Assembly: GCA_032718475.1 (NCBI GenBank)
Contig: JAUCBJ010007452.1
Coordinates: 1-64,000 of the forward strand
Origin: Nemertoderma westbladi
Taxonomy: Eukaryota; Animalia; Xenacoelomorpha
Length of the DNA stretch: 64,000 nucleotides
Reading direction: 5' to 3'
The stretch's first letter is position 1. The number at the start of each line of letters is the position of its first letter. The notes beneath the pieces were generated by a model. The model saw only the letters and a program-made list of their open reading frames with translations, was not told the origin of the DNA and made no database searches. Positions 150 to 62,109 of the stretch are shown piece by piece. A program made the position numbers and the translations under genes.

Positions 150-2420
150 CTAATAAGATCTGTCAGTGTCTTTCCCGCTGTCCTCTCCTTGTGAAGTCTG
201 GCTTTCGCCGTCATCGGTATAACATACTGGTGTTATTTTTCTCCTAGAGACGGGTTTTTCACTTACCTTGTTTTCCGGTGTTTTCTCCCTAGACAGTTTC
301 AGGAGCTGTAATTTCACTTCTCCATCTAGGAATGACATGAGATCAGCCATGGTAGGGTCTCGCCGTTGTTGTTCCATCATATATAACACTTTCTTATCCC
401 AGCGTGTACCTACTCCACCTTTAGGTAAAGTAGAAGCCACTGCTCTAATAACCATAGCACTCTGATACTCATGAGACTTACCTAGCCAATCTAATTGTCT
501 GCAGATCTCCTGAATTTCATCGGAAAACTCTATAATCCCGCTGCTAATAAACTTTCGGGGCGCTACCAACTTTGCATACAAATACCCAGCTATGTTATTC
601 CTATTACCATACCTGATGTTTAGTGTATCCCAAACTTGTCTTAATCCGTCTGGATGTCCAATAAACCTTAACGCCATTAACTTGGGAGATCCTTCCAAGC
701 ACTCGATGAGGTATCTAAGTTTTTCTCCATTAGATAGTACAGAGTTCTGTATGTTATCTTTGTAATATTCATTAAAAGGTAACCATTTCATCTCATCTCC
801 ATTGAACTTGACGATCTCTCCCACCTTCACCGCTTGCCGGGCTTCGGTTCTAGCCATTTGACGCGTAAAACTTTCTTGGGCCATCGTGCTATTTAATATC
901 GAGTTATCGGTATATAAATTTCTCGGATTATGATCAGTTCTATAGGGAATATCATTATCAACAGGTCTATAATTACCCTTAATAGGGTTCACTATAGGAG
1001 TTTCTACTTCGCTAGCAGTATAAATGCGTGTAGGCTCCACACCTTGCGCATGAGATACTTCAGACCTAACAGGTTGACACATTGTTACAGAGGGTGGTGG
1101 TATACCCTTTTGAGTATTTACTAATTTATCGCGCTCTAGCGCGATACTTTGCTGCACTTCTTGCAACTCTAGTCTACTTTCCCTTACTGTGCCCTTGAAT
1201 TGCTGGACAGTCTCCTGCATCTGCCCGAGCAGGAGATCCATCCCCCGCCGTCTCTCGTCCACCCATTCGACCGCCGAAGCGGGAGTCGCCAACGTTGTAG
1301 CGGGCGGACGAGGGACAACGGGCGACAAATCCGGAATATTTCGCTCGGGGTCCAGGACCTGAACTGTCGCCTGGGCAGTTCTACTGGGCACAGGTAGCTT
1401 AGTGCTATGTAGAGGGAATTTAGAAGTAGCTTCAGGGAGCACAGGTGTGTCTATCACCGAAGGGGTGATTTCAAGAACAGGCCTAATTATTTCAGGCTCA
1501 TCTACTATAGTAGGGAGTCTTTCTATTTTAATTATTTGGTCTGTGGGCTCTGTACTACCTAAGTTAGTGTTATTTAGTTGCCTTCTAACAGCTGGAGGCA
1601 AATCAGGCAATTTCTGACGGTGGAATGTTCTTTTACGTCTGCTTAAACGAGATCTATTTCCTTTGCCTTCAGTATCGGTGGTATCGCCTTCTTCAGATGA
1701 TGTATACCCCTGTCTTTTGGGAGTAGATCGACTCATCATCTGCATATTACTAGCTGTTAACTGTTTATTGAAGTTGTCTTGCCTCTCTTGAAGATTTTCC
1801 AACTCTAGTTGGGTTGCCTCTTCAGATGCCCTCCGTTCTGCTTCTACCACTGCCTCTGCTGTTGCCAGTGCCGCCTTTCTTTCTGCTTCGGCCGCTGCCT
1901 TTGCTGCTGCTACTGCCGCTTTTGCCTCTGCCGCTGCCACTGCCGCTGCCGCTTTTGTTTCTGCTTCTGCAGCTGCCTTTGCTGCTTTTGTTTCTGCTTC
2001 TGCAGCTGCCTTTGCTGCTGCTACTGCCGCCTTTTCCTCTGCCGCTGCCACTGCCGCTGCCGCTTTTGTTTCTGCTTCTGCAGCTGCCACTGCTGCTGCT
2101 ACTGCCGCTGCCTTTCTGTCTTCTATACGTTTTTTCTTTACTTGTTCTTCCTGGACCTTAACGACGCGGAGTTGTTCATCGAATTTAGCTTGATTAGCCG
2201 CTAACCTATCCACGTCGATGGCGTCAAGCACACGCTGTGCTCCTTCACTATTAGGGCTAAGTCCCTCTAGTCTTCTCCGCAACTCTTCATCACCTACAAA
2301 ACGTTGATAGTCTGACAGATAGATGTCAATGGCATCCTTCTTATGCGGTTTCTCTGCTGTCGCTTCACTCTCCGTTGTATCTAGTAGACTGTCTGACAGG
2401 TTCTGCTTTGCGTCAGACAT
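150..2420 (-). pseudogene. BEL/Pao Gag (DUF1759-like capsid region) with Ala-rich N-terminal repeat; premature stop/frameshift at ~150
   Basis: Motif KFNGDEMKWLPF...LSNGEKLRYLIECLEG...LNIRYGN. Homology to the element 2 ORF continues past the TAG (1-150 resembles 47460-47610), indicating a frameshift. Confidence 0.85.
1860..2112 (-). repeat. Coding tandem repeat in gag (AAAVAAAEAETK-type units)
   Basis: Repeated gccgctgccactgccgctgcc / gtttctgcttctgcagctgcc blocks; much shorter in element 2 (49290-49400). Confidence 0.85.
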
Positions 2421-3779
2421 GTTTGTGTGTACAGTTGAATGTCTACTGCTATATTACAGTCTGAGTAAGTCTAATAACTCAGTATTAACTGCTAGCCTAG
2501 TAATTAATTCCCGGTACTGCTACTCAGTGTAGCGTGATATATAATATATAAGGATACCGGTATGCTTATAGTATATATAACTATTATTACAGACTAGGTT
2601 TATCACAGAATACTGGTATAATTTTAGCACAAATATATATAAATATATAATAGGCCTATCGGAATACCGGTATACAGCTTACTGTTTGTAGGATATATAA
2701 TTCTGAAATAGAATTAATTACAAGTACCGGTATAATTTCAGCCTAGATTTATAGAAATAAAGATAATAGGCCTATCGTAAATACCGGTATATCAATTATT
2801 TCAAATAATTGAATTTCTGTTACTTTAGGGTTACTTTGTTACTTTACTTACTTTATTACCGTTATTTGAGCAGTAATCCAACTGATATTGAGACCTAATG
2901 GTTGTATGGTAGGCCTACGATTTATAAATCGTTAGATTTGATTTATAATATATATATACCCGTTTTAATGGGTTTTGTCAATGTTTGAAATAAATGTTAT
3001 TATTTCTGGGGAGTAATCACTACACAAAGCGGTGCGCTTTCAGTGAAGTGTTACGTACAGGACACTAAAACAAATAATACTAATTTACCTAAGTTACTTA
3101 ATACTACAAATTACGTACAATTCGGGTGAGATTACAATCTCTAAATAAACACAAAAATTTTACAAAAACACAAATACGAATTTTTAGGGTAATTTTACAA
3201 GAAGTCTACAAACCAGCCTAACAAAGGGTTAGAAAACTGATTATTACAGCGGACAGGGTACTACGGTATTGGAAATAATAAGTAGTAGTAAATACACTGC
3301 GTTGTCTAGATAGGAAAATACCACCGCCTGACGACCTATAGCCGTATCGCTATAGGTTCTACGTTATGTATCACGGAGTGTTCCTACCTAGAAGTTAATA
3401 GAGCTAATCGAATGTGCCTATCAACCACTTTACAACACAAATATAATGCCTACAATAATTACTTCGGAAAGTACTATACACTAAACCCTAAATTAGGTAC
3501 GAGTACTTGTATAACAAATAATCAGTAGTTAAATATACTTGAACAGCTAAAAGAACCACGGCATCTGCTGGAGTGACCGATGCACAAAATCACCAGTCTT
3601 TACCTACGCCAAGCAGCCCGTGTAGTACCGAGGTTAATTTAACTATAGCGGTATGTATAACAAACACAATTACTGTAGGAACAAACTTGGGGACTTGAAT
3701 GTTGCGAATAATCGCATAAACTCTGAATAATAAATATTACGCTACGCGTACAAACCACTCAAATAAAATACAGACCGAA

Positions 3780-4295
3780 CACTGACAGACTACTATCAAG
3801 CCTAAACAAACTACGGTATATGCAGACTCCGAAATGATTAGGGAGTATGCGCTCTAACCCAGTAGTGCGACTTATTCTTTAGTTGGGGGATTACCTTACA
3901 GCGTTCGCTGCCCCTACTGCCTAATCGTACTTAATCGGACAGATGATCTACACACGCGGCAATCCGTTCAGACCTAATAACAGCCAGACAACTATCCAGC
4001 CTACAAATTATTTAAATAAAATTATACGCTACCCGTACAGACTTACACAAACAAAGTACAGACTAAACGATGGCAGACTACTCTCAAGCCTAAATAAACT
4101 ACAGGACATGCAGACTCCGAAATGATTAGGGAGTATGCGCTCTAACCCAGTAGTGCGACTTATTCTTTAGCTGGGGGATTACCTTACAGCGTTGCTGCCC
4201 CTACTTCCTAACCGTACTTAATCGGACAAGTGCTCTACACACACTGCAATTCGTTCGGACCTAACAGCAATCAGAGAACAGCTCAGCCTACAAAT
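3780..4295. repeat. ~290-bp direct repeat (2 copies) in the element 1 leader
   Basis: cagactccgaaatgattagggagtatgcgctctaacccagtagtgcgac occurs at ~3823 and ~4111. An equivalent duplication exists in element 2 (~51475-52000). Confidence 0.85.
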
Positions 4296-4578
4296 TGTCT
4301 GTACAATCTGATCAGGTTTACACGCCTTCTGTTCAATACTGGCCTACAAATAAATAAAACTTGACAGAAATAAGTAAAATCTCAATAAAAAACCAGGGCG
4401 GCCGTTCCCTGATTAAATACTAAGACCTACCGGTATACAACTATCAAAATCGAATAATACTGCTGTACCTGTACTGCTGTAGGTACCGGTCCGGGTGGTT
4501 AGGTAGTCAGGCCTACTGACCTACAGATGTACCGGTTGACCGGTACTTTCAACTTTATTGCTTACTGCAATAAGAAGC

Positions 4579-4590
4579 TATATCCTTTAA
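4579..4590 (-). promoter_or_regulatory. Non-tRNA primer-binding site of element 1 (putative self-priming)
   Basis: Directly abuts the LTR end, has no TGG, and is the exact reverse complement of 5317-5328 inside the LTR. Confidence 0.65.
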
Positions 4591-5795
4591 TGTTCGCGCT
4601 TTCAGACCTTTGGCAGTTTAACCCGCCAAATTAAGATGTCTTCTAGATATTAAATCTGCTTTTAGTCTATGACAAGTATTTGATTCACTACACTAGTCGA
4701 AACCAATCCGTGCGCGACCATTCACCCGCTGGAAATTCCCGGGAGATTGGGTTCGACGGTTTAATTTTTATTGCTATGTAAGCCTAATGTATTATTCGAC
4801 TGACAGTATTATATAATCTCTGACAATATTATTCACCTTCGGTAATATTAACAGTACCTTTAGGACGTGGCGCTTTATCTACATAAACAGAGTTATGACT
4901 TAAACTACTCACAACGATATGGCTTAATTATAATCCACATATATGGCGCATTCTTTAGGAATTGCTTCTTTAACAGACTCACTCATACACAATGCTGCAC
5001 AATACTGCACACTAATCTGCCAATCTTCACTGATTTTAGTCACATATAAAAGGAACACAGTCTGACTCATGTAGGGTCTATCAAATAACATTAGATTCAC
5101 TTCAAACCACTTTAACATAAGTCACAATCGTTATTGGTAACCTTTCTCTCTTACCTTCGGTATATCAAGAATATTGGGTTGCGGGGTTATTTATCGTTAT
5201 TCCAAATATAATTATTCATCAACCATATTATGAAGAACTGACAGCAAATAGCAGTATAAAACAACAAGTCAGTACCGGTATGTCAGCAATGAGACATAGG
5301 CATGCAGGTCCGTCCGTTAAAGGATATATGCCCTTTATAACTAAACCTACTAGTGTACGACTAAAAAGCAGTACAGCACAAAATACTTCCAAGCCGTTCT
5401 TTCTTTGGCTCAAGACTGAATGTAAACACTGCACATAGGCATTGCGTCATTTCTCGGAAATTTTCTGTACAAGGAGCCACAAAAACGCTCTCATTGGCTG
5501 ACTGAACTGAGAGACGCCGTAGAACAAAGGAAATCAACACGTATGAATGTCAGCTGTTAACCGTAGTCATAGTAACTACTGTTCAAGAGTAGCTATCACC
5601 CTTTTGCGTCACGAATTGCCATAGAATCATAAAATATGCCTTTCACAGTACACATACGGAGGAAATAGGTCTTAGATCCTCTAAAAACACCGATACAGCA
5701 ATAATACGGTCTCTTACACTTATTAAATCAACTACAGAGTATTTTAATGTAAAAGATAATAAAAATAACGGGGCAATTCAGCAAAGGCTTTTACA
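4591..5795 (-). repeat. 5' LTR of element 1 (~1205 bp)
   Basis: Runs TGTTCGCGCT...GGCTTTTACA on +. Diverged homologue of the element 2 LTRs (TGTACGCGCT...GCTTTTACA); shared blocks include ccattcacccgctgga and ggcgcattctttagga. Confidence 0.88.
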
Positions 5796-6613: not shown

Positions 6614-7800
6614 GTCTAGCCGATTATTTGGCACAATCCCAGGCCCAGAATGCCCAGAAATTTCAGCGGTTACTTGGTCAACCAAATCAACCTGCAGTTC
6701 CACAGGTTGAATCCACTCCTCGTAACCTTCAAATTAAAAGAACCGGATTTTAGTTTAGCAAAATTTGAAACCTGGAAGTCGGTTTGGGCGGATTATTATT
6801 CCGCATTTCAGATGGACAGAATGGCTAGGGATAGGAAAATCAGTATTTTCAGGAGGGCATACCTTTCTATAGGTATGCACTCAACATTGGAACAAGTTAT
6901 TGATGTTCCCCACGACACACAGGATAATCCTTTAACAGTTCAGGTGTTAATTGATTGTATTCAATGTTATTTTCGTGGTAAACGAAATATTGTAGCTATC
7001 CGGTTGTTATAAAGGATCTTGCTCGAGATGCGGATCTATGTCGACATTGTTTCGATCAACGATTGACCACTCGTAGTACGTCTGGTATTTCTTGCGAAGA
7101 CAATAGATCTAAACATCTTGCATTAACTCCATTTACCTTATCCAAATCCTTGTAGGTCTGAGGAATAGGCCCAAGCTGGAGTTCAGGATTTAAAACAGCC
7201 TTCAGTAGTCAAGCAAACTTCTCACCAATCTCGTATTCACAGGAAGAGTAAATCCAATAATTTTAGACGCAACAATCATTATAAATCAAATTCCAGAAAG
7301 AATCATTTATCTGCTATGGTTTGTTATGGCTGTGGTAAAACAGACCATAATCGTTCTGATTGTCCAGCTAGGAACAAAGATTGTTCTTATTGTGCTGGCA
7401 AGGAAGGCCATTTCGCCAGTTGTTGCCAGTCTAAACAAAAGGATTCAAATTCACTTCCTAAATCAAAATCAAAACAACCCATTGGCCGCATTACTCTCAA
7501 CATGGTTGGTAACCACAATAGACAGGCACCTAAGGTAGACTTCTGTAATATTGCAACAGGGAATTACTGGTGCTGAGGCCACTGCTGCTAGCTTAGATTT
7601 TCTTCGGCCCTCTCCATTTACAGGGAAAATTTACTCGTACCAGACCATGATGATCTTTCTGCTGCTAATGGTAGTCCTCTTTCATGCATTGGTCTCCTTT
7701 ATACTACAATTTCGTATGGTGGTTATTTGGCTGCATCATTTTGACAAACATTCCGAATATAACCAGTACCTATGTTATTTGTGTTACACTTCCAAAAAAA
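6614..7800 (+). pseudogene. Degraded Ty3/Gypsy (Mag-like) gag-protease remnant, copy A
   Basis: FETWKSVWADY...YFRGKRNIV capsid-like segment; double knuckle CYGCGKTDHNRSDCPARNKDCSYCAGKEGHFASCC; decayed (D)TGA protease motif 'ITGAEAT'; stops and frameshifts. Confidence 0.75.
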
Positions 7801-8407
7801 ACATTCTGTGCAAAATTTTAGCAAGTTTGGGTGATATCTAGAGGGGCAACAAGGACCATGAAGTTGACATATATTAGCCGCTATTGATCATGGTTATCGA
7901 AACACCGGAATAGTTGTTATCACGCTGCCAGTAAGAATTTTACAAAATAATAATGAAATTAAGTTATTTTAAACAAATGATATTAATCACAACACGTCAA
8001 AACACTATAATTGCAAAGAAAGCATCAAATTACTGACATCATACCGTTTTCTGGGCTTTCTAGTAATAATAATAATAATATAACGAGGAATGATTTAATA
8101 GAATCTATCAATAAAATTATGTTTTATATACTTAAGTGTAATAATACAGAGATGAACTGTTCAAGAGTTAAAATTACATGCCCATCAATATTTATACATA
8201 TAATCATGAATGATAAATTGATTTGTTTCGAAATGTGATTTGCCTATATAACTATCACCAGATGAACCTAATTATCTCCCCCAAAGCTTAAAGGATCATC
8301 AATGCTACTACTGCCCAAAACACCAAAAAATAGAGGCATTGTTTGGTTAAACTAACTAGCTAATATTAACAGATAGTTTCACAGAATTTCCATGATATTA
8401 TTGTGTT

Positions 8408-8616
8408 TTAGCAGCGTTGACATATTTGCTTGCAGATTGAATGATTTGCACGACATGTTCCTCGTGGTTTAATCTTGTACCAAGACAGACACATTATGTG
8501 GTCGTTATGGCAACTCTCGTTGGCTTCTATATAGGCTTTGGCCGAGTCACAAACATTACAAGTCTCAGTGCAGAAGGAATACATGAAGTACATTGTGGCC
8601 TCTTCTTCACAATAAC
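8408..8616 (-). CDS. Duplicated terminal exon 6' (end of ShK2 + ShK3)
   Basis: TTTTAG acceptor at 8618-8617; 209 nt, same translation as 21238-21030; TAA stop. Confidence 0.75.
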
Positions 8617-19204: not shown

Positions 19205-20420
19205 TCTCATGCTTTAGTTAAATCACAACGTGATCTAGCCGATTATTTGGCACAATCCCAGGCCCAGAATGCCCAGAAATTTCAGCAGTTACTTGGTCAA
19301 CCAAATCAACCTGCAGTTCCACAGGTTGAATCCACTCCTCGTAACCTTCAAATTAAAAGAACCGGATTTTAGTTTAGCAAAATTTGAAACCTGGAAATCG
19401 GTTTGGGCGGATTATTATACCGCATTTCAGATGGACAGAATGGCTAGGGATAGGAAAATCAGTATTTTCAGGAGGGCATACCTTTCTATAGGTATGCACT
19501 CAACATTGAAAACAAGTTATTGATGTTCCCCACGACACACAGGATAATCCTTTAACAGTTCAGGTGTTAATTGATTGTATTCAATGTTATTTTCGTGGTA
19601 AACGAAATATTGTAGCTATCCGGTTGTTATAAAGGATCTTGCTCGAGATGCGGATCTATGTCGACATTGTTTCGATCAACGATTGACCACTCGTAGTACG
19701 TCTGGTATTTCTTGCGAAGACAATAGATCTAAACATCTTGCATTAACTCCATTTACCTTATCCAAATCCTTGTAGGTCTGAGGAATAGGCCCAAGCTGGA
19801 GTTCAGGATTTAAAACAGCCTTCAGTAGTCAAGCAAACTTCTCACCAATCTCGTATTCACAGGAAGAGTAAATCCAATAATTTTAGACGCAACAATCATT
19901 ATAAATCAAATTCCAGAAAGAATCATTTATCTGCTATGGTTTGTTATGGCTGTGGTAAAACAGACCATAATCGTTCTGATTGTCCAGCTAGGAACAAAGA
20001 TTGTTCTTATTGTGCTGGCAAGGAAGGCCATTTCGCCAGTTGTTGCCAGTCTAAACAAAAGGATTCAAATTCACTTCCTAAATCAAAATCAAAACAACCC
20101 ATTGGCCGCATTACTCTCAACATGGTTGGTAACCACAATAGACAGGCACCTAAGGTAGACTTCTGTAATATTGCAACAGGGAATTACTGGTGCTGAGGCC
20201 ACTGCTGCTAGCTTAGATTTTCTTCGGCCCTCTCCAATTACAGGGAAAATTTACTCGTACCAGACCATGTTGATCTTTCTGCTGCTAATGGTAGTCCTAT
20301 TTCATGCATTGGTCTCCTTTATACTACAATTTCGTATGGTGGTTATTTGGCTGCATCATTTTGACAAACATTCCGAATATAACCAGTACCTATGTTATTT
20401 GTGTTACACTTCCAAAAAAA
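19205..20420 (+). pseudogene. Degraded Ty3/Gypsy (Mag-like) gag-protease remnant, copy B
   Basis: Near-identical to 6614-7800 with a few SNPs and indels. Confidence 0.75.
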
Positions 20421-21029
20421 AACATTCTGTGCAAAATTTTAGCAAGTTTGGGTGATATCTAGAGGGGCAACAAGGACCATGAAGTTGACATATATTAGCC
20501 GCTATTGATCATGGTTATCGTAAACACCGGAATAGTTGTTATCACGCTGCCAGTAAGAATTTTACAAAATAATAATGAAATTAAGTTATTTTAAACAAAT
20601 GATATTAATCACAACACGTCAAAACACTATATTTGCAAAGAAAGCATCAAATTACTGACATCATACCGTTTTCTGGGCTTTCTAGTAATAATAATAATAA
20701 TATAACGAGGAATGATTTAATAGAATCTATCAATAAAATTATATTTTATATACTTAAGTGTAATAATACAGAGATGAACTGTTCAAGAGTTAAAATTACA
20801 TGCCCATCAATATTTATACATATAATCATGAATGATAAATTGATTTGTTTCGAAATGTGATTTGCCTATATAACTATCACCAGATGAACCTAATTATCTC
20901 CCCCAAAGCTTAAAGAATCATCAATGCTACTACTGCCCAAAACACCAAAAAATAGAGGCATTGTTTGGTTAAACTAACTAGCTAATATTAACAGATAGTT
21001 TCACAGAATTTCCATGATATTATTGTGTT

Positions 21030-21238
21030 TTAGCAGCGTTGACATATTTGCTTGCAGATTGAATGATTTGCACGACATGTTCCTCGTGGTTTAATCTTGT
21101 ACCAAGACAGACACATTATGTGGTCGTTATGGCAACTCTCGTTGGCTTCTATATAGGCTTTGGCCGAGTCACAAACATTACAAGTCTCAGTGCAGAAGGA
21201 ATACATGAAGTACATTGTGGCCTCTTCTTCACAATAAC
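21030..21238 (-). CDS. Hemopexin-ShK gene exon 6 (terminal): GYCEEEATMYFMYSFCTETCNVC...CHNDHIMCLSWYKIKPRGTCRANHSICKQICQRC*
   Basis: Phase-1 acceptor TTTTAG|GT completes ShK2 begun in exon 5 (CRDQVETCKAWKNEG). A third six-Cys ShK-like domain follows. Confidence 0.88.
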
Positions 21239-41299: not shown

Positions 41300-41670
41300 G
41301 GATTCTACTAACCTTCCCACTGAGTGGTTGTCGCTACCATTCATTTTAAACAACAATGTCAATGGGCTTCAAGGTAAACACGTTATTTTGTGTGAATTAG
41401 TTGTACTATACAATGTGACTGTGGTTACAATACAAGAATCCAAACTGCAGAATGATGTATCAGATGGTAGTATTGAACTGGATAATTTCTATCTCATTCG
41501 GCATGATAGAGACCTATCAAAATTTGAGGAGAATGGTGGTGGTGGTCTGGTTACATATGTGAGCAAACTATGGTGTAATACCAGACCCACCATGGTTACC
41601 TCCATTTCATCACCTCATATAGAAGCTTTAGGTGTAGTATGTCGTCCAAGATATCTTCCATCACAGTATA
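41300..41670 (+). pseudogene. LINE apurinic-like endonuclease, N-terminal half (Rex/Babar/CR1-group-like)
   Basis: NVNGL...IQESKL...IRHDR...GGGGLVTYV...CRPRYLP motifs; cut at the element 2 insertion. Confidence 0.85.
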
Positions 41671-42853
41671 TGTACGCGCTTTTGAAGACCTTTAGCAGTT
41701 TAACCTGCCAAAATTTATATGTCTTTTGGTTTATAAATAGACTTTAGAAATTGACAAATATTTAATACCAATAAACACAACATTAGCCGAAGCCAGCCTA
41801 GTGCGCGTCCATTCACCCGCTGGATATACCCGGGAGACTGGATTCTGAGGGCTTAGATTATTATTGCAGTGTAAGCTTACTGTATTATTCGATTGATCGT
41901 TAATAAATAATTTCTGACTAATATTATTCCCTTTCGGGAAATATTAACAGTTCCTTTAGGACGTGGCGCTCTATCTAGGTAAACAGAGATATGACTTGTA
42001 CTAAACACAACGGTAAGTCGGTGAGGCTTATGATTCACGTATGAGGCGCATTCTTTAGGAAATGCTTAGTTATCAGTCACAATCATGCACACTACCGGTA
42101 ACACACAAGACTGCTCACTAATTTGCCGACCGTCAATGAATTTTATCATATATAAAGAGAACAGCAACTGACTCATGTAGTGCTTATCAAATAGCATTAA
42201 ATTCACTACAAACCACAATAATATAAGTCGCAATCGCTATATGTAACCCGTCTCTCTAACCTGTAGTGTATCAAGAAAATTGGGAAATTTGGGTTCTTTA
42301 TAGATGTTCTCCAGATAATAATATTCAACCATAACATAACAGTAAATAGCAGTATAATAATGTATGTTGCAGTGATATAAGACTACTGCTGATTGCACTG
42401 ATTGTACTGGACCGATAACAGTTATACGCTCTATAATCTAAGCCTACTAATGTTTCTTCTAAAGTCTGAAACGAATTGACTCTAGAGCCGGTGTTCCTGG
42501 CCTAGATAGAAACAACACAACAGTATCAAGAAAAAACAGTAAGACTGAACACTCCTACCACGATCGGCCAAATATCTCCACATCGACAGAAAAAATCGCT
42601 CTGATTGGCTGTTAAGCTAAACAAAGAACCATGTGTCCAATGGCCGTTTCCATGTCAGCAACCAGCTGTTAGATGTCGTAATCTGAATCATCAAGGCTAA
42701 GCTGTGCCAGGGTATTTGACGCATTGCGGGTTTTTTGCCTTACCATGTCCGCCAAAGCACACATATAGAAGAATGACTTTTATGTCCGTTAAAACACCTA
42801 TAACGGTACCTTGCGGGCGAGGGGGACTGATTATATCCGCAAAAGCTTTTACA
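41671..42853 (-). repeat. 3' LTR of element 2 (1183 bp)
   Basis: Direct repeat of 52401-53574; differs by a ~9-bp indel and about ten substitutions (by eye). Confidence 0.96.
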
Positions 42854-43230
42854 CCGCTCCCAGAAAATGGGATTCAAGTTTATAAATATACAAAAATCAC
42901 AGTTTCTAATATATGTAAATACTCTAAACAGTTAGCCTTTCTTGCGCGGACGGCGTTTACGCAGTTTTTTAAAGCTGGCCAGAGTCCTTTTCTCTTTGGG
43001 GCGAGCCACCTTACAAGGAGGGCTATAACTCCTGGGTGAAGGGTGCAATATAATTGCATCAGAGGGTGTAGGATTATGGTCGGTGTATCCGCCAGTCGAA
43101 GTGCCGGGTTGATTGACATCAACGTCGGGGGAGCGGGGTCTAACGGCTTTGAGAGCGCGTTTTAAGACAGCCGCTCTTACGGGTCCTTTACGAGTGGTCT
43201 GAACGAGAGCCGTGGGTGGACCATAGGCAG

Positions 43231-44379
43231 TTAGAAACCTCCGGGTTTAATGGTTCTTTCCAACTCGCGTTCGCGGGCTCGGTATTCGTAAGGCCGTCGA
43301 TATACTTCCTGTAACTCGGGGTGTGAGTTAACAAATAAGTCTCCATAGTCCGGATCCTGACGGATATAATTGATTAAGTTATAGGAATGAAGGTCGCTAG
43401 GATTAACACTCCTGAGAAATTTGCGTACGAACTTGGTTGAAATACATTCTCCGACGCGCTTCAGTAGTTCGTAACTCGATATGCGTGATTTCTGTTCGAC
43501 AGAAGCGAATAGATAAGGATGGAACGCATAAACTCCTTCGTAAGCGCGTCCAGGATAATAGCGATGGCGCGAATCACAATGTAAATCAGCGTTCGCTTCC
43601 CAAGCTCTGATGTAACGTAGTGTGATCATTTCATCTACGCTTTCCAAATCGTGACTAAAAGGGCAATCGAAACTGGCGTGTCCCTTTAGTTGACAATGGT
43701 GACATTGAGTCATAAATTGAGGGCAAACCGCAAAAATGTGCAAGTTATTGAGTCTGCAATACGCACAATAAATTTCCATCACCGGTTGTTCGTGGAAATA
43801 GGAACAGCGGACGTTTGTGTCCATGGGCGTAACATGGTCTCTCGATGCGCATAACCGACAACGTTGCCGAGAAACATAGTTGGCATGGCGATAATTGTAC
43901 GCAGTGAGACACTGTGGACCTTGATACCATTCTAGGATGTAATCGTTGTCGCTGTTCCGGGCGCGATAGGCTGAATCTCCTCAGATTCTAGGCATATTGG
44001 TTCGTCTTCCCAGTCTGTTACGAATAGAATTTTCGTGATCTATTCTCGGTTTATCGTTACGACTCCGCTGGGTATGATATTTAAATAGAACCATTTCCCT
44101 TTCGGTGTCTACATCGTCCGTATCATGTAAATCGATAGGATGGCCGGTAGTTAAGAAGTCCATATACGTACCATTACGATGCGTATAGCGAGCGGTGAAT
44201 TTTCGATAGTCCAATTCACGCGTAAGTTGCTCTTGGGACATCGGCGGTTCGATATAACGACCATCGTCCTCCGTAATGGTTGGATCGGTTTCACCGCGTA
44301 TCAAGCTATCCACAAATGCTTGTAAAGGTAGAGTATATCGCTCCCTGATACCAAGATCATCTTCTATCAACTCCGTCAT
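43231..44379 (-). pseudogene. Accessory ORF3 of element 2, ~382 codons with one in-frame TGA; three Cys/His zinc-knuckle-like motifs
   Basis: ORFs 44379-43981 and 43824-43231 are in the same frame, and the bridge is open apart from TGA at 43983-43981. Motifs: CRLCASRDH...C, CAYCRLNNLHIFAVC, CHHCQLKGHASFDC. Confidence 0.7.
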
Positions 44380-46002
44380 ATCTGCTATCTGAGTTTATTA
44401 ATATCGAAATGAGTTTATGTTTAGGCGAGCGGACGTCGCTGCCTACCTCTCTTTGCCCCCGGACAGTGGGATTCTCAGCGCCGATGTACCGTCGTCGCGG
44501 TGTTTACGCCAACATGTAGCAACAGCACGACAACGATAACCGGCACAAGTCACTCCACTGTCCGTCCCAAAGGCTTGAATCCACTTTAGGTTCTTTCTAT
44601 AGGAGAGTTGGGCTACTTTCACAATTGCGACTAGCTACTGTAAACATACTTTAGCAGTAACATTCACCTATAAACGCACAAATTCCACACAACTGTCACC
44701 AATTGTACACATACAGGCCATTTGTCCGTTAGTCAGTGCCTTCCAGAATGTCACGTTATTACTGTGTATCTTTGGATACTAACAGTGTGCTATGTATTCT
44801 CTATGCTATGCAATGTGACAAGCTTTCTATTGTTCTTTTAACTTGCTTCTAATTCTAGCGTGGGTGTTGCTATGGTGACATTATGGAAAGCTAGCGGTAG
44901 AATTAGGGTAATTCTCATGCATACAGATCTGGAATGCTATTTAATAGTAATTCTTTAATTGTCAATATCCTCTTTATACATGATTTTATTAATTTTATCG
45001 GCTATTGACTATATGTTGGAGATTCTCGCACTCTAATACACTCAATAGGATGAATCTCCGCTCCCATGATCTATTAATTAATGGAATTTTGGGTATGTTA
45101 TAAATTGCACAAAATGACAATTTATGAAATTCATTTAAAATATGAATTTAAATTTATTCCCGTGAATTTTATTATTTGATGTTAAAATTGACACAATTTT
45201 TATTCCAGAGCACGTCTGGGGACTGAGGATACTGAATTCTATAAAATTTGTCTTTTAAGAGTATCGGTAAGTGCTGCGATATCTTAATTGACTAGAAATT
45301 TTCAAGGATCTGGATTTTACAGATTTTAATAAATATTAAATTAATATTTAAGATGGGCACCGATTTATTCCAGAACTTGTCTGGGGACATTAACCACTGA
45401 TTCTAGAATTTGTCTTTCAAGTATATCGGTGGGTGCCGCGATATCTTAATCGACTAGAATTACAGATGGTCAAAAGGTTTAACAGATTTATTTGCGTTTT
45501 ACGCTACTGTTAGAGGGACATCACGCTACTATATGTATTATTTAATATAAGGTAGAAGAGCAATATCGCACGAAGCAATGTCAGTGTGAAGAGGCAAGTC
45601 GTTTCCAAGGTCTACCCAGAGCTTGGTTTAGCCGAGACACGAGGATCTGAACTTTGCATTCCTAATACTCTGCCTACCAATAATACTTGAATATAGTAGT
45701 GGCTTTATTGTACTTTAATAAGTACGGACATTTCATCTTACTGTAGTCACGTATTTATAATATGATACGGACAGTAAGGAAAGAGAAAGAATTATTTCTC
45801 GCCGTCACACTAAATATATATTATGTGTAATTACGTAATAAACACTAATATATTGCACTAACCTACTAAATAATCTAAAATAACATTCTACTAAATAAAA
45901 TTAAATAAAACGATTATAATAAAATTACATAATAATACATACATAAATATAAAATAAAAACAAATATAAAATGATATAGTCACACGCCCACTCCATATGT
46001 TA

Positions 46003-49000
46003 TTACGTTATGGAGTCCCTAGATATTTGTCGGATTAGGGAAGTGGTCGTAGGAAGAGTATCTTGCCTTCCATAGTTTCCGGACAGTTTTCGGTCTCTTT
46101 CCAGTAAACATAAACGACTAGCTGGGCGATTGAGTTGTTGCGTTACTTTCTCCGCTCCCTTGGCCTGTCTAATCTCTGCCGTGGTAAGATGAGGAGGCCA
46201 TTCTTCTTCTTCTTTACTTAAGAAGTCGGATCCACCTAACCAGCCTGGAGTATCTATCAGTTCTTGAGGAGTTGCTCCTCTGGAAGCGATGTCGGCTGGA
46301 TTAATCGTCCCAAGGCAATGTCTCCATTGATCTACATTGGAGTTAATATCGTCATTATCTGAGGAGTATGGTGTTCCCTCAGTTGGATCGTCCACATCAC
46401 TGCTCTCCACTTCCCATTCCTTTACTTGGTATACCTGTTGTTGAGGTAATCTCTCTTTGAGAGTTCTACGGGAAGGGCCAGTGAAGTACCAACCTACTCT
46501 AGTTCTTACCGCATAGGTTTGTAGTGGCTGCGGTTGAGCAGGCCGTTTCTCCAATGTCTCGAGCGCCTCATGCGCGTTTTGGCCGATGAGTATTTGCACT
46601 CCAGGATAATCTGTCTGGAATCGAGGTATCTTAAGCTGTTGGATGCTCTCGTCCTCGTCCCAGTTATAAGGTTCTACTTGGGTAGTAGCGAAGTTCTTTA
46701 TAGCCACCATTTTTACTGACCTTATACTTTGTGCTCCTAATTTATCCTGGGGGGTGGACAACGCACCTACATAGTAATCTGCCGTTATGGTAGATTTCCA
46801 AACATGCATAATTCCGGACATATTCAACTTAGTTTGGAATTTGTGTTGTCCAGCAAAGATATCTTCGGCTAGTTCTTGATCGATGAATGTTCCTGTGCTG
46901 CCGGAGTCAAGGAGGGCGTTCACTATGTAACTTTTGGTAGGACCGTGAACTCTTACCTGCACTACAGGAAATTCTCTGATTCCTACGTTGGAAGTTGGAG
47001 CTTTCCAAGATGGTTGTCTGTCAAAGGTAGTTGGGGGGAACTCATTGTCAGTGTCCTTTTTGTAAGTAAGTGCTCGATACACCGCGGTATTGATTAGGTA
47101 ACAGGATTCGTTGGCGTCGGAGAATTCGTCAGTATAGAATCCTTCCATCTCAGACTCTTGATCAGTGTCATTTACATCACTGAATTGGACATGTAATTCG
47201 GGCTCACTTACCTGACTCGGGTTGTCTCGTTCGAACTCACTGTGTAACAAGATGTGATGTTTCGCGCCACACTTTGCACACTTTACGTCGGAGTAACAGG
47301 TTCGCCGTTGGTGTCCTGATCTGAGGCAATTATAGCATAACCGCTTATCCCACAGGACTGCACGTCTGTCTACAAGGGGTTTCTTTAGAAATTCAGCACA
47401 CGCACTCAAACGGTGGGGCCCGTCGCACAGCGCACATTTTGGTTTGATGTTACTCACTTTACCTTGGGTAACGTTATGCACTCTCGTTCTTTCTTCGGGC
47501 TTTCTTCCGTGAATTCTCTTAGGAGACGTAGGAGGAGTTGTTGTTACCTGTTCTCTCCTATCGTTGGTTCGAGACTTATATTTACTTACGTCTTTATAGG
47601 TCTTGTTGTCATAGTAAGATTTTGCTGTGTCTTTCCCGCTGTCCTCTTCTTGAGAAGCTTGGCTTTCGCCGTCGTCAGTATAACACACTGGTATTATCCT
47701 TCTCCTAGAAACGGGTTTCTCACTTACCTTATTTTCCGATGTTTTCTCTCTGGACTGCTTGATGAGTTGTAGTTTTACTTCACCATCTAAGAAGGACATG
47801 AGATCAGCCATGGTAGGACTTCGTCGTTGTTGTTCATTCAGGTACAACACTTTCTTGTCCCAGCGTGTACATACTCCACCCTTTGGTAAAGTAGAGACTA
47901 CGGCTCCAATAACCATGGAACTCTGATATTCATGCGACTTACCTAACCAGTCCAATTGTCTACAGATCTCCTGAATTTCATTGGAAAACTCTATAATCCC
48001 GCTACTAAGGAAGTGTCGGGGGGCTACTAATTTTGCATACAAATACTTAGCTATGTTATCCTTGTTACCATACCTGATGTTTAATGTATCCCAAACTTGT
48101 CTTAATCCTTCTGGATGTCCAATAAACTTTAACGCCATTAACTTGGGAGGTCCTTCCAAGCACTTGATGAGGAACCTAAGTTTCTCTCCGTTAGATAGTA
48201 CAGAGTTCTGTATGCTATCTTTGTAATATTCATTGAAAGGTAACCATTTCATCTCATCTCCATTGAATTTGACGATCTCTCCCACTTTGACCGCTTGGCG
48301 GGCTTCTGTTCTAGCCATCTGACGCATAAAGCTTTCTTGGGCCATTGTGTTATTTAATATCGAATTATCGGTATATAAATTTCTCGGATCATTATCGGGT
48401 CTATAGGGAATATCATTAACAACAGGTTTATAATCACCCTTAATAGGGTTTGCTATAGGAGTTTCTACTTCACTAGCAGTATAGATGCGTGTAGGCTCCA
48501 CACCTTGCGCATGTAATACTTCAGACCTAACAGGTTGACACAATGTTACTGGGGGTATTGGTATACCCTTTTGTATATTGACTAATTTGTCGCGTTCCAG
48601 CGCGATACTTTGCTGCACTTCTTGCAATTCTGCCCTACCTTCCCTTACTGTTCCCTTAAGTTGGTAGACAGTCTCCTGCATCTGTCCGAGCAGGAGATTC
48701 ATCCCCTGCCGTCCCTCCTCTACCCACTCGACCGCCGAAGCGGGAGTCGCCAACATTGTAGCGGGCTGACGTGGGACGACGGGAGACAAATCTTTGATGT
48801 CTCTCTCAGCTTCCAGGACAGGGATATTCTCATGGACTGTTCTACCGGGTACAGGCAGTGTAGTACTGTGTAAAGGGAATTTAGAGTTAAGCTCTGGAAG
48901 TACAGGGGTCTCTAGCACAGGAGTGGCTTTGGGAACGACAGGCCCAATTATTTCAGGCTCATCAACTATTGTAGGGAGTCCTTTGACCTGAATAATTTGT

Positions 49001-50096
49001 TCTGTGGGTTCTGTACTACCTAAGTCTGTGCTAGCTAGTTGTCTTCTAACCGCTGGGGGCAAATCAGGCAATTTGTGACGGTGAGATGTTTTTCTACGCC
49101 TGCTTAGACGAGATCTATTTCCTCCGCCTTCAGGATCGGTGGTTTCGCTTTCCTCCGATGATGTGTATCCCTGGCGTCTGGGAGTAGATCTTCTCATCAT
49201 CTGCATGTGACTAGCAGTTAACTGTTTATTTATGTTGTCTTGCGTCTCTTGAAGATTTTCCAACTCCAGTTGTGTGGTCTCCTCAGACGCTCTCCGTTCT
49301 GCTTCTGCTACTGCCTTTGCCGCCTTTCTTTCTGCTTCTGCTTCTGCCATTGCCGCTGCCTCCTTTCTTTCCGCTTCTGCTTCTGCGATTGCCGCTGCTT
49401 TTCGGTCCTCTATCCGCCTTTTCTTTACTTCTTCTTCCTGGACTCTAGCGAGGCGAAGTTTTTCATCAAATTTAGCTTGGTTTGCAGCTAACATTTCAGC
49501 ATCGATTGAGTCCAACACAAGCTTGGTTCCTTCACTATTAGGGGAAAGTCCAGACAGCCGTCTCCTCAACTCTTCGTCTCCTAGGAATCGCTGATAGTCG
49601 GACAGATAAATGTCGATGGCGTCTCTAGTTCGCGGCTTCTCTGCTGCTGTTAATTCGCTTTCCACTTCGCTTTCCACCTCGCTTTCCACTTGAGAAGAAG
49701 TGGCGTCGGTTGATTCTTCATAGGTTGGCCGCTCATCATATCCGCCATCTTCGCTCCGCGTTCGGGCGTCCGCTCAACAGTATCCGAACTACTGGAGCTA
49801 TCGGGCCGCTGAGAACTAGGTTCTTGGCTAGGAGGTTGCTGCTGTTTTATAGCTTCTTCTTGATCCCGCTTGACTTGGGCCCGAGTACCTATGACAGACC
49901 AACGGCGCTTCACTAACTTCGCAAATTGCAAAATCTTTTCTACCAACCTAGGTTCTGACACAACCACTGCAGGGGTTGCCCTTCTTACAGTATGAGGGGT
50001 TTCAGACCTCGGTCTGGGATTCTCTACACTTTGATCTGAGAAACGGGCTGTTGTTTCTAGGAGACTATCTGACAGAGTTTGCCTTGTGTCAGCCAT
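46003..50096 (-). CDS. Element 2 Gag-protease fused to a short RNase H remnant; probable true start at 50096 with a frameshift at ~49770-49690
   Basis: DUF1759-like region; BEL triple knuckle (CALCDGPH..C, CYNCLRSGH..C, CAKCGAKHHILLH); protease ALLDSGS; then jumps to QWRHCLGTINPADIASRG. MADTRQTLSDSLLETT at 50096 matches the element 1 N-terminus. Confidence 0.85.
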
Positions 50097-52171
50097 GTTT
50101 GATTGTACAGTTGAATGCCTACTGCTATAAATACAGTTAAAGCAAGTCTAGTAATTCAGTATCACTGTTAGCCTAATAATTAATTACCGATACTGCTACT
50201 CAGTGTAGCGTGATGTATATATAATATATTAGAATACCGGTATGCTTATAGTATATATATAAGTATTATTACAGGCTAGATTTGTCCAGAGTACCGGTAT
50301 ATAATTTTAGCACAAATATATATAAATATATAATAGGCCTATTGTGAATACCGGTATACAGCTGACACTTATAGTATATATAAGTATAATTATTACAGAC
50401 TAGAATTAATTACAGAATACCGGTATGATTTCAGCCTAAATTTATAGAATAAATATAATAAGCCTATTGTAAATACCGGTATGTCAATTATTTTAAAATA
50501 ATTGAATTTCTGAATGTTAGGGGTTACTTGGTTACTTTACTTACTTTATTACCGTTATTTAAGCAGTAGTCCAACTGATATGGAGACCTAGTTGTTGTAT
50601 GGCAGGCCTACTATTTATAAATCGTTTGAGTTGATGTATAATAGTTATATACCCGTTTAAAATGGGTTTTGTCAATATTTGAAATAAATGTTATTATTTC
50701 TGGGGGAGTCACTACACAGAAGCTGTGCGCTCTCAGTGAAGTGCTACTTATGGGACACTAAAACAGATAATTCTAATTTACCTAAGTTACTTAATAGTAC
50801 AAATTACTTACGATACGGGTGAGATTAATTCTCTAATTAAACACAACAAAAATATTACGTACGAAATTTTAGGGTAATTTTACAGGAAGTCTACAAACCA
50901 GTCTAACAAAGGGTTAGATTTCTGGTTATTACGACGGACAGGGTACTATGGTATTTGAAATAATAAGTAGTAGTAAATATATTGCACTGTCCAGATAGGA
51001 AAATACCACCGCCTGACGACCTATAGCCGTATCGCTATAGGTACTACGTTATGTATCACGGAGTGTTCCTACCTAGAAGTTAATTACCGCGGACTACTAG
51101 ATCCAACGTGCCTATTAACCACTTTACAACACAAATATACTGCCTACACACTAATTACTTTCGGAAAGCACTGTACACTAAACCCTAAATTAGGTACAAG
51201 TACTGGTACAACAAATAATCAGAAGTTAAATATACTTGAACAGTTAAAAGAACCACGGCATCTGCTGGAGTGACCGGAGCACAAAGTCACCAGTCTTTAC
51301 CTACGCCAAGCAGCCCGTGTAGTACCGGGGTTAATTTAACTATAACGGTATGTGTAACAAGCACAATTACTGTAGGAATAAACTTGGGGACATGAATGTT
51401 GCGAATAATCGCATAAACTCTGAATAATAAATATTACACTACCCGTACAGAATACTCAAACAAAATACAAACCAAACGCTGGCAGACTACCACCAAGCCT
51501 AAATAAACTACCGTATGTGCAGATTCCAAAATGGTTAGTTAGTATGCGTTCTAACACGGTAGCACGACTTATTCTTTAAGAGGGGATTGACCTTACAGCT
51601 CTGGCTGCCCCAACTTACTAACTGGCACTTTATCAGACAAACTCTACACACGCAGCAATCTCTTCAGACCTAATAATAGCTAGACAACAATCCAGCCTAC
51701 AAAATATCTGAGTAATAACTATTACGGTACCTGAACAGACCACACAAACAAACACAGGCCAAAACGCTGGCAGAATACTGTCAAGCCTAAATAAACTACA
51801 GTATGTGCAGATTCCAAAATGGTTAGTTAGTATGCGTTCTAACACGGTAGTACGACTTATTCTTTAAGAGGGGATTGACCTTACAGCTCTGGCTGCCCCA
51901 ACTTACTAACTGGCACTTTATCAGACAAACTCTACACACGCCGTAATCTCTCCAAACCCAACAACAATCCGACAACAGTCCGGCCTACAGTTATCTGAAC
52001 AATCTGAGCAGACTTACACGTCTTCAGCTCAATATTAACTTACTAGGAAATAAAACTGACAGAAATAGACCTAAGTAAAATCCCAATAAAAACCAGGCGT
52101 CCCCGATTTAATATCGAGACCTACCGGTATACAATAATCAAAATCGAATAATACTAATGTACTTATACTGG

Positions 52172-52340
52172 AAGTACCGGTTAGGACAGTTGGGCCTACA
52201 GACCTACAGCAGTACCGGTTCAGGCAGTTAGGCCTACGGACCTACAGCAGTACCGGTTCTGGCAGTTGGGCCTACGGATCTACAGCAGTACCGATTCAAG
52301 CAGTTGGGCCTACGGACCTACAGCAGTACCGGTTCCGGTT
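52172..52340. repeat. ~38-bp tandem repeat (4-5 units) in the element 2 leader
   Basis: agtaccggttcaggcagttaggcctacggacctacagc; present as about one unit in element 1 (~4480-4535). Confidence 0.85.
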
Positions 52341-52389
52341 TACCGGTCGACCGGTACTTTCAACTTTATTGCTTACTGCAATAAAGACA

Positions 52390-52400
52390 ATAACTGTTAT
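52390..52400 (-). promoter_or_regulatory. Non-tRNA primer-binding site of element 2 (putative self-priming)
   Basis: Abuts the LTR, has no TGG, and is the exact reverse complement of 53136-53146. Confidence 0.65.
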
Positions 52401-53574
52401 TGTACGCGCTTTTGAAGACCTTTAGCAGTTTAACCTGCCAAAATTTATATGTCTTTTGGTTTATAAATAGACTTTAGAAATTGACAAATATTTAATACCA
52501 ATAAACACAACATTAGCAGAAGCCAGCATCCATTCACCCGCTGGATATACCCGGGAGACTGGATTCTGAGGGCTTAGATTATTATTGCAGTGTAAGCTTA
52601 CTGTATTATTCGATTGATCGTTAATAAATAATTTCTGACTAATATTATTCACTTTCGGGAAATATTAACAGTTCCTTTAGGACGTGACCCTCTATCTAGG
52701 TAAACAGAGATATGACTTGTACTAAACACAACGGTAAGTCGGTGAGGCTTATGATTCACGTATGAGGCGCATTCTTTAGGAAATGCTTAGTTATCAGTCA
52801 CAATCATGCACACTACCGGTAACACACAAGACTGCTCACTAATTTGCCGACCATCAATGAATTTTATCATATATAAAGAGAACAGCAACTGACTCATGTA
52901 GTGCTTATCAAATAGCATTAAATTCACTACAAACCACAATAATATAAGTCGCAATCGCTATATGTAACCCGTCTCTCTAACCTGTAGTGTATCAAGAAAA
53001 TTGGGAAATTTGGGTTCTTTATAGATGTTCTCCAGATAATAATATTCAACCATAACATAACAGTAAATAGCAGTATAATAATGTATGTTGCAGTGATATA
53101 AGACTACTGCTGATTGCACTGATTGTACTGGACCGATAACAGTTATACGCTCTATAATCTAAGCCTACTAATGTTTCTTCTAAAGTCTGAAACGAATTGA
53201 CTCTAGAGCCGGTGTTCCTGGCCTAGATAGAAACAACACAACAGTATCAAGAAAAAACAGTAAGACTGAACACTCCTAGCACGATCGGCCAAATATCTCC
53301 ACATCGACAGAAAAAATCGCTCTGATTGGCTGTTAAGCTAAACAAAGAACCATGTGTCCAATGGCCGTTTCCATGTCAGCAACCAGCTGTTAGATGTCGT
53401 AATCTGAATCATCAAGGCTACGCTGTGCCAGGGTATTTGACGCATTGCGGGTTTTTTGCCTTACCATGTCCGCCAAAGCACACATATAGAAGAATGACTT
53501 TTATGTCCGTTAAAACACCTATAACGGTACCTTGCGGGCGAGGGGGACTGATTATATCTGCAAAAGCTTTTACA
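52401..53574 (-). repeat. 5' LTR of element 2 (1174 bp)
   Basis: Direct repeat of 41671-42853. Confidence 0.96.
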
Positions 53575-53879
53575 GTATAGCTGTATCATCATTATCAATA
53601 TTTACATACGGCCTAAGGCAAATCGAGCAATTTCGAGAAAAGAACTAGATGATGATGATGAGCTCGATCATGGTTTCGAATCCTAGGGGCTTTTTAATTG
53701 TGATTGGAGATGTCAACCAGCCGAAATTGAACTACTTAGACTCCCTTAATTTAGTGAATATGATTGATGAACCCACTTTCACTTTCACTCGCTCAGAATC
53801 TCAGTTGGATGTCGCTTACGTCACTGCAGCATCCCCTTACAAATGTTTAATAATTGCTCCTATTGGTAACTCAGACCAT
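53575..53879 (+). pseudogene. LINE endonuclease, C-terminal half
   Basis: Resumes in frame after the TSD (SQY|SCIIIINIYIRP), then after a frameshift LIVIGDVNQ...PTFT...LDVAY...IGNSDH; cut again at 53880. Confidence 0.85.
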
Positions 53880-54464
53880 TGTGACGGGATCCGAGAATCC
53901 CGGTTTATCCGTTAGCTTTCCTACGCGTCTCCACCGTGCGTGTGTGAAAAGAGTTTTAGTTGTTGACTGATCGGTGTGTATAAATAAGAAGGTATAATAT
54001 AACTGAATAGGATATAGCACAGTTGACACAGTTGATTGATGATTAAGTGTACTGGTAAATAGAATGACAATACTGCAGTACACGGAAACGGAGATGGTGG
54101 AAAGAGTCCCGGTACCGCCCTAACTAACTGACTTACTAAAGTGAATGAATATACACAAAGACCGGTAATATATTGCACGGTTGGCCACGTTGCATTACTC
54201 AGTCGATGCTTGCCCCCCATTGGCTGATAACTCATTTCTCACCCTCCCATTTCCCTGGGTGTGTTTCCCCCTGTCGCTATTACTCTCTCCCTCCTGGAGG
54301 TGTAACCTCTGACCCCCGCTGTGTGTGTTCCCTTGGGGTTTGTTGCCCCGCTTATTGGGGTGATACAAGGTTGATTGGTAATCAACCTTGTAGTTCCAAT
54401 ATTGCTTAAACCTCCTGCCCTCCCAACTTTGTGTGGGGTGGTTGGCGGAATTGATACGCTAACA
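53880..54464 (-). repeat. Candidate 3' LTR of element 3 (~585 bp)
   Basis: TGT...ACA termini, followed on + by C14 (a poly-G PPT on minus). No partner LTR in the window, so the inner boundary is inferred. Confidence 0.55.
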
Positions 54465-55119
54465 CCCCCCCCCCCCCCATGCTATCTTCCTGGTGAGAAG
54501 ATAGCATCCACCTATAGTGCGCTACAATTCCGCTGGATCCCGATCTATTATCGAGTGTGGGGTGGAACTATTTTTTCTCGGAGCCGGCTTTCCAGACCGC
54601 CCCCTATGGGTATGATATCGCTACCCTGTTTACCTGGCGTCCCGTGTCGGGCCGATCGTGCGCTCCTCTCACACGACTTTTGTTTCCCCAACACTTTCAC
54701 CACTAACTCTACTCTGTTCTCACCCTGACTCTCCTCTACTTCTCCTCACTTCCGCTCTAACTCTCGGACCTTCCCATCCCTCACTCAGCCTCTTATTCCT
54801 CCCCCCCCCACACTTGAATTGCCTATCTCACTCACTCACTCCCGACGAGTCTCACCCCCCTCCCGTGCCGTCGCACTCAAGAAGTGTGAAGTCGTCCAGC
54901 GTCCCGTTTGTCATAGTCAATCGTCCCCCAGTCCCAGTAGCTAATTGGAGAAAGGTTGAATGACTATAGTACTTTCTTCAATTATATTTTGCTAAACTAA
55001 TAATGATTACTACGTACGTACCTACTAATTGCACTTTTCAATTATTTAAATTACTTGAATTTGTACTTAGGAGTTCGCACGTCTCGGGTGGTGCCTTCCA
55101 GGCATGTTACACCGAAGTC

Positions 55120-57106: not shown

Positions 57107-57489
57107 TGGCCTAATTCCTATTTACTTTTGAGTTATAGCCTAACTTTGTTTCTGAAACTGTCAAGTTACAATAAATAAATCTAAATTACAATTTTGTCCG
57201 TTACTTTAATTATGTTCCAGAATTTACTTTCTACTGTTACCATAATTTGTTAATTTTCTAATTTCTTATTTATTTTTAATATTTTAATTTAATTCAATCC
57301 TACTACTGTGTTACTACTTACTATTGCCAATGGATTACTCTATTTCATAATCCACGTTCTGGCCTACTCTGTGGGCTTGTGCAGTACAACAGTATGCGTC
57401 GTGTGGCCTACACGATTTATCCAGCTGTACTCATATGCCCCCCTCTCGCTACTCACTACTAACTGATACCTACATTATACATACCCTTC

Positions 57490-57662: not shown

Positions 57663-57685
57663 AGCCTACTACAGCCTACAGACTA

Positions 57686-62060: not shown

Positions 62061-62109
62061 GGTCTTTGGTCCCTCTCCCAGGCTATCCTCGCTGTTGTGT
62101 CCTCTACGG

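Follow-up and report, generated by a model that had tools for sequence, protein, structure and literature searches.

The window analysed here, a 64,000-nt stretch of the Nemertoderma westbladi contig JAUCBJ010007452.1, contains two retroelements on its minus strand, whose LTRs are 75% identical over 759 nt. Element 2 is a whole insertion with an LTR at each end, the 5′ LTR at 52401–53574 (minus strand; 1174 nt, TGT...ACA) and the 3′ LTR at 41671–42853 (minus strand; 1183 nt). The LTR pair is 98.5% identical over 1183 nt, and a 5-bp target duplication, TATAC, flanks the insertion at 41666–41670 (after the 3′ LTR) and 53575–53579, giving element 2 the TG...CA LTR ends and target-site duplication of BEL/Pao elements. 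Because the LTRs are paired and the target is duplicated, the end of this LTR is fixed independently of the complementarity to its own LTR (self-match) described below. A short purine-rich tract (42854–42867, minus strand) adjoins the 3′ LTR, at the place of the BEL/Pao polypurine tract.

The Gag-protease region of element 2 (46003–50147, minus strand) is spread over two frames, 49650–50147 and 46003–49773, and contains DUF1759, three Cys/His knuckles and a protease motif; a 50-aa BEL/Pao piece from further down Pol comes after them. The knuckles were read from the sequence and are taken as those of a BEL/Pao-type Gag. No reverse transcriptase, RNase H core or integrase was found in element 2, which would borrow all three from an intact relative. 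Ahead of the 3′ LTR lies an extra coding region rich in Cys and His (43231–44380, minus strand), in which a 249-aa frame (43231–43980, minus strand) has a weak zinc-knuckle match as its sole hit (E 0.016, below the family cut-off). Element 2 is non-autonomous yet recently inserted, and the identity of its LTRs suggests that its priming arrangement was recently in use.

Element 1 runs off the edge of the window. Its 5′ LTR (4591–5718, minus strand; 1128 nt) appears to start at TGTAAG and ends in ...CGAACA; the end at 4591 was set by homology to element 2, as the 3′ LTR lies outside the window. The Gag frame, with DUF1759, spans 2453–150 on the minus strand, and DNA similarity to element 2 continues past its stop at 150 to the window edge. 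Matches to DUF1759 (Pfam PF03564) were obtained in both Gag frames, with E values of 5e-12 and 9e-12, and most of the 39 homologues found are BEL/Pao polyproteins or carry BEL/Pao domains. Together, the DUF1759 Gag, knuckles, protease and homologues bear out the assignment of both elements to BEL/Pao in the initial annotation.

The leaders from the PBS to the Gag start are unusually long, more than 2 kb (2420–4590 in element 1 and 50096–52400 in element 2). Each contains a direct duplication of about 290 nt, and that of element 2 also a 38-nt tandem repeat. Hairpins are predicted near the LTR end (4609–4630, minus strand; element 2 counterpart 52421–52442) and just after the PBS (4555–4573, minus strand; counterpart 52364–52386). 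A splice-donor-like AG/GT(A/T)AGA occupies the same LTR place in both elements (5149–5154 and about 52975–52980, minus strand), about 165 nt behind the candidate self-primer site, and may serve a spliced Gag message.

A third BEL/Pao element in the window (53881–64000, minus strand), which belongs to a different family, shows protease, RNase H-region and integrase matches in four frames. Its LTR-like ends (63746–64000 and 53881–54464) do not match each other, and its leader has a spaced TGG motif at about 63730 and no self-match. An extra 520-aa frame behind its integrase (55467–57029, minus strand) drew no match in Pfam and PDB searches; part of it resembles, by eye, a DEDD-type 3′–5′ exonuclease. 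Arrays of a 62-bp satellite (116 and 197 copies) occupy 8571–34220 with interruptions by a 1959-nt segment, of which there are two copies at 99.3% identity (6615–8570 and 19234–21192), and by 21-, 47- and 10/20-nt repeat blocks that recur at 34.2–36.5 kb.

Complementarity between the PBS position and the LTR

In terms of priming, the initial annotation had described, in each element, an exact match between the bases directly after the 5′ LTR and a stretch inside that LTR, and both matches were recovered at the same place. The PBS position of element 1, TTAAAGGATATA (4579–4590, minus strand), is a 12-nt sequence without TGG whose exact reverse complement, the candidate self-primer, lies at 5317–5328 (minus strand). 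The corresponding position in element 2, ATAACAGTTAT (52390–52400, minus strand), is 11 nt long, likewise without TGG, and is the exact reverse complement of the LTR site at 53136–53146 (minus strand); an identical 11-nt site is also present in the 3′ LTR of element 2, at 42415–42425. Alignment of the LTRs confirms that the two sites occupy a homologous position, between the flanks given in the initial annotation, about 400 nt into the LTR and about 730 nt from the PBS, and both matches begin at the first base behind the terminal CA.

The absence of a TGG-type tRNA site behind either LTR was also confirmed, and an 18-nt PBS of the ICTV type (for tRNA-Arg or tRNA-Gly) was not found behind either of them. 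ARAGORN found no tRNA in the window, and an Rfam search returned a single match there, a chance one to 6S (E 0.93). Each PBS contains only 2 G or C in its 11–12 nt. The element 2 PBS is a near-palindrome (10/11) and the element 1 PBS is not palindromic; a palindromic dimer site was considered and fits element 2 only. A search for a primer assembled across a splice junction in the window's own LTRs gave no junction match of at least 6 nt among 100 and 50 candidate junctions.

The two elements use different sequences for the same pairing. As the initial annotation had proposed, the partners changed together: 4 of the 11 pairs differ on both sides between the elements (positions 1, 5, 6 and 8), in a comparison that spans two subfamilies within this host, and position 12 is paired in element 1 only. 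The probability of four such two-sided changes by chance is roughly 4e-5. Matched against the LTR of the other element, each PBS finds only 5–6 nt. The 36 nt behind the PBS are identical at 35 positions between the elements, despite the changed PBS. The PBS therefore changes in step with the LTR site instead of its flank, a drift incompatible with priming by a fixed host tRNA.

The matches are also rare in shuffled sequence. A match of equal length anywhere in the LTR was found in 8 of 20000 single-base LTR shuffles for element 1 and 34 of 20000 for element 2; the Markov expectation is 2e-4 and 1e-3, respectively, and PBS shuffles did as well in 0/200 and 1/200 cases. Leader positions with an 11-mer complement in their own LTR number 3 of 2156 in element 1 and 5 of 2290 in element 2; in both, the base directly behind the LTR belongs to this set.

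Public DNA runs from two studies contributed 9162 and 2345 short contigs on the LTR of element 2. Thousands of contigs on one LTR indicate many family variants, each contig being too short to connect a PBS with its LTR site. Of the variant places listed (40/48, from two samples), none coincides with either partner of the pairing; clipping at both partners has probably affected the contigs of diverged subfamilies, which makes a comparison of mirrored variant frequencies uninformative. Contig cover on element 2 drops sharply just behind the LTR site (bins 53083–53138), where subfamilies may diverge, although a gap in cover proves nothing.

Self-matches and tRNA-type sites in other BEL/Pao loci

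The pairing was sought in BEL/Pao elements from other sources. Conserved-leader DNA-pattern scans gave no match in viral or metagenome contigs and a Gag protein search gave no locus in viral contigs; a search with the homologue alignment gave one partial locus. A scan of metagenome contigs, with an alignment of 24 of the 39 homologues as query, provided the loci described here, the best 80 of at least 570 confirmed BEL/Pao loci, in a sample that leans towards relatives of the first sequence.

The LTR ends of six distinct loci (L005, L007, L009, L038, L047 and L048) are fixed by paired repeats. Four of the six have a self-match of 10–15 nt, each with 0/200 shuffles as good, and the other two, L038 and L047, have a spaced TGG site. 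The self-match is an unbroken 11 nt in L009 and L048, and in L005 (15 nt) and L007 (10 nt) it exists only across a GT..AG junction inside the LTR. In a wider scan that sought the LTR end within 200 nt of the Gag start, 11 of 35 loci have a self-match of at least 10 nt with at most 1/100 shuffles as good, nine of them across a GT..AG junction (L002, L005, L007, L010, L013, L018, L065, L068 and L072; introns of 71–423 nt). Six of the 35 have a TGG-type motif, and none of these six has a self-match of at least 10 nt; among the remaining 18, many contigs hold too little LTR for the comparison. The self-match lies at an offset of 0–3 from the LTR end and stands instead of, not in addition to, the TGG site.

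These counts carry several conditions. Loci with less than 4 kb of polyprotein match or less than 60 nt of leader were dropped beforehand, as were L001, L006, L012 and L070 (partial, tandem or chimeric), L008, L011 and L030 (near-copies of L007, L010 and L038) and L054 (no candidate end). The LTR end was chosen by the search for 7 of the 11 self-matching loci and set by hand from its repeats for L009, and the top match of L007 in the wider scan is not at its true LTR end. An unconstrained scan was noisy, with control matches of 10–11 nt and once 14 nt, and the constraints were set after it had been seen. When ten PBS sequences, from eight loci and both window elements, were compared with all ten sites (10 × 10), each matched its own site over 10–15 nt and any other over at most 7.

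Judged from their sequences, the junction-spanning loci, whose junctions lie in a 5′ or a 3′ LTR, are candidates for primers built by splicing, in BEL/Pao elements unrelated to those of the window. Locus L048 bears on this reading: its 5′ LTR, around 137–150, closes an intron-like stretch with an acceptor-like TATTTCAG exactly where identity to the 3′ copy begins, and the 3′ copy has, at 6910–6935, the unbroken 11-nt site. The two copies, 88% identical, perhaps derive from different family copies. The arrangement looks like a precise intron loss, a natural intron-less form, and this apparent loss supports the notion that the junctions are real.

In a Gag-protease tree computed with IQ-TREE from 28 of the 58 rows of the FastTree set, a branch (support 90/95; 97% of bootstrap trees) sets the 11 self-matching loci apart, and the six tRNA-type loci fall outside it. 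FastTree places the window elements as sister to the self-matching group. Element 2 sits on a long branch without a settled position in IQ-TREE, and an AU test of its membership in the self-matching clade speaks neither for nor against it (p 0.43). The suggestion that self-priming is a peculiarity of the window's lineage was not borne out, as the signature looks widespread in BEL/Pao.

Candidate RNA starts and predicted folding

Upstream of the element 1 site lies a conserved block (5329–5351, minus strand) that consists of TAGTAGG.TTAG followed by a TATA-like TATAAAG. Further upstream, each LTR has a candidate promoter. In element 1 (5412–5497, minus strand) it would comprise CCAAT at 5497–5493 and the initiator-like TTCAGTCTT at 5420–5412, and in element 2 (53262–53329, minus strand) CCAAT at 53329–53325 and the same TTCAGTCTT at 53270–53262; both are promoter-like motifs. 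The initiator-like 9-mer is identical in the two LTRs, about 60–80 nt behind CCAAT, and lies 89 and 121 nt upstream of the LTR site in elements 1 and 2, respectively. The TATA-like motif is 5–11 nt upstream of the LTR site and, if a real TATA box, could put the RNA start just behind the site. An RNA start at 5328 in element 1 and 53146 in element 2, as in Tf1, was predicted in the initial annotation and would be one of three options.

The predicted pairing between site and PBS depends on where the RNA begins. With a start 0–12 nt upstream of the site, its predicted probability is 0.95–0.99 in element 1 and 0.36–0.76 in element 2; with a start at the initiator-like motif, or 20–100 nt upstream, it is 0–0.08. 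From the initiator-like start, forcing the helix between site and PBS costs about 7 kcal/mol in a naked-RNA model. The helices themselves are AU-rich (−11.6 and −10.1 kcal/mol for elements 1 and 2). Side helices of the pretzel type can be drawn at −8 to −12 kcal/mol, but they are weak or vary in register from one element to the other and show no covariation.

The other BEL/Pao loci offer a comparison. Clear TATA boxes occur 124 nt (L048) and 142 nt (L005) upstream of the site, a placement from which the primer in these relatives appears to sit some 100 nt into the RNA; in L009 the predicted helix survives 120 nt of upstream sequence. In the window elements, the TAG 11–12 nt before the LTR site is a possible splice acceptor. 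Other AGs occur just upstream of it, and a shared donor for it was not found in the two LTRs. According to the available part of PMC5341516, Tf2 has alternative starts, one of which leaves out the primer, so multiple starts in the window elements would be unsurprising.

Probable priming from the element's own RNA, its alternatives and known systems

The most likely function of the pair is priming of reverse transcription by the element's own RNA, to which the complementarity, the missing TGG, the two-sided changes and the recurrence in unrelated elements all point. This part of the earlier proposal of an independent self-priming mechanism is supported, and its restriction to a single lineage is not. 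The PBS of both elements probably lands a self-primer derived from the RNA of their own LTR. The element RNA would fold back so that the LTR site, presumed to lie towards the 5′ end of the genomic RNA, meets the PBS. Cleavage on the 3′ side of the site, presumably by the RNase H of the element as happens in Tf1, would free an end that reverse transcriptase extends. The first cDNA would then copy the rest of the LTR, about 730 nt, and jump to the 3′ copy. The partners would drift together either because each round writes the primer back into the PBS or because selection keeps the pair.

The primer does not have to come from the first 11 nt of the RNA; in the relatives it would be an exon–exon junction inside it, and a cut just behind that junction would predict that the intron is kept inside the LTR. 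The unbroken sites of the window may represent forms that lost, or never had, the LTR intron of the relatives. We put forward tentatively, at somewhat less than even confidence, the broader reading that a large BEL/Pao branch swapped tRNA priming for a primer cut from inside its own RNA, which most members would assemble through host splicing of an LTR intron, with splicing gating replication and the cut keeping the intron in the LTR. The window elements would then be an intron-less form, gated by transcription start or by processing at the TAG 11–12 nt before the site.

Among the alternatives, the one that survives best, though improbable, is that the pairing is real and does not prime: it would bring the leader together with the LTR site (possibly that of the 3′ LTR copy) to serve packaging, dimerisation or circularisation, with priming left to something else. 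The occurrence of the site in both LTRs would suit such a role, as would a TATA-like motif that could exclude the site from the RNA 5′ end; the near-palindrome of the element 2 PBS recalls the conserved hairpin site that the available text of PMC5445492 describes for GalEa, but the element 1 PBS is not palindromic. The match, moreover, always abuts the LTR end (offset 0–3), where the 3′ end of a primer must sit, and it stands in place of the TGG site, with no other primer site seen.

A little less probable is an element-derived primer that acts in trans or from the 3′ end, such as a short LTR transcript, the partner genome of a dimer or a 3′ LTR copy cut behind the site. Such a primer would need no folding across 730 nt, would sidestep the helix loss that is predicted for long 5′ ends, and would lead one to expect the same covariation. 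The intron retained in the LTR of the relatives would, however, be easier to account for if the spliced 5′ copy primes and the 3′ copy serves as template.

Priming by a fragment of a host tRNA, or by another small RNA of the host, with the LTR match as a secondary stem or copy, is in our view quite unlikely. Internal fragments of host tRNAs are possible candidates, and half-tRNA priming is described for Ty1/copia lineages in the available part of PMC6317226. There is no TGG, however, and two different fragments, each with a fortuitous match to the LTR concerned, would be needed to serve the sister subfamilies. Each of the ten different PBS sequences compared pairs with its own LTR alone, and those of the window elements have 2 G or C in 11–12 nt. 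Chance is close to refuted: the sequence is AT-rich and 2 and 4 other leader positions have 11-mer LTR complements, but the homologous places, the four two-sided changes (about 4e-5) and the recurrence in unrelated elements argue strongly against it.

If priming from its own RNA holds for BEL/Pao, an animal LTR superfamily, this would be the third superfamily to use it, after Ty3/gypsy and, by prediction, one Ty1/copia lineage, which would suggest a repeated origin of tRNA-free priming. An element without a tRNA site would also escape silencing by tRNA fragments, and the junction-spanning relatives imply a primer made by host splicing. A literature search found no description of a primer built in this way, nor, across titles and abstract openings, mostly outside the subscription literature and Repbase reports, of self-priming in BEL/Pao. 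The ICTV profile describes Belpaoviridae as primed by host tRNA, with an 18-nt PBS for tRNA-Arg or tRNA-Gly, and calls BEL/Pao replication poorly understood (PMC8742986). The available parts of the Sinbad paper (PMC554778) and of a BEL/Pao survey (PMC3118150) do not mention primers or tRNA, and that of PMC13524379 does not mention self-priming; in the accessible passages of PMC3601003, PMC5445492 and PMC5443660, self-priming is linked to Tf1 or chromoviruses.

The closest likeness is to Tf1/Tf2, Tj1, Tcn1 and the Tf1/sushi group, in which the PBS behind the 5′ LTR also complements about 11 nt of the element's own LTR and no tRNA is used. From the portions of the literature available, Tf1 primes with the 11 nt at the start of its RNA, which requires a three-helix pretzel (PMC10085805), RNase H cuts between bases 11 and 12 (PMC7175516, PMC4600332), and self-priming has been shown in Tf1 and inferred, with the pretzel, for the Tf1/sushi group (PMC10085805, PMC4600332). 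For Tcn1 and the TAR copia lineage (Houba, Osr-1), it was predicted from sequence (PMC6317226, in the part available). The Tf1/sushi elements are Ty3/gypsy chromoviruses, whereas the window elements have a BEL/Pao Gag and are not members of that group. Unlike Tf1, moreover, the window elements have about 730 nt between site and PBS and side helices that are not clearly kept, and the candidate primer of their BEL/Pao relatives spans a splice junction. The TAR lineage likewise lies outside Tf1/sushi, but belongs to plant Ty1/copia. The fungal copia element GalEa shares the lack of a tRNA PBS and has a palindromic stretch and hairpin in its place, and its authors, as far as the available text goes, found no LTR sequence complementary to the hairpin site (PMC5445492); in the window elements, by contrast, an LTR complement exists and covaries. 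Canonical Belpaoviridae (Semotivirus) likewise have LTRs, a target duplication, a DUF1759 Gag with three knuckles and a protease. The window elements are BEL/Pao-type variants rather than canonical members because the 18-nt tRNA PBS is absent, and their pairing, read from sequence, would represent a variant of a known mechanism in a superfamily catalogued as tRNA-primed.
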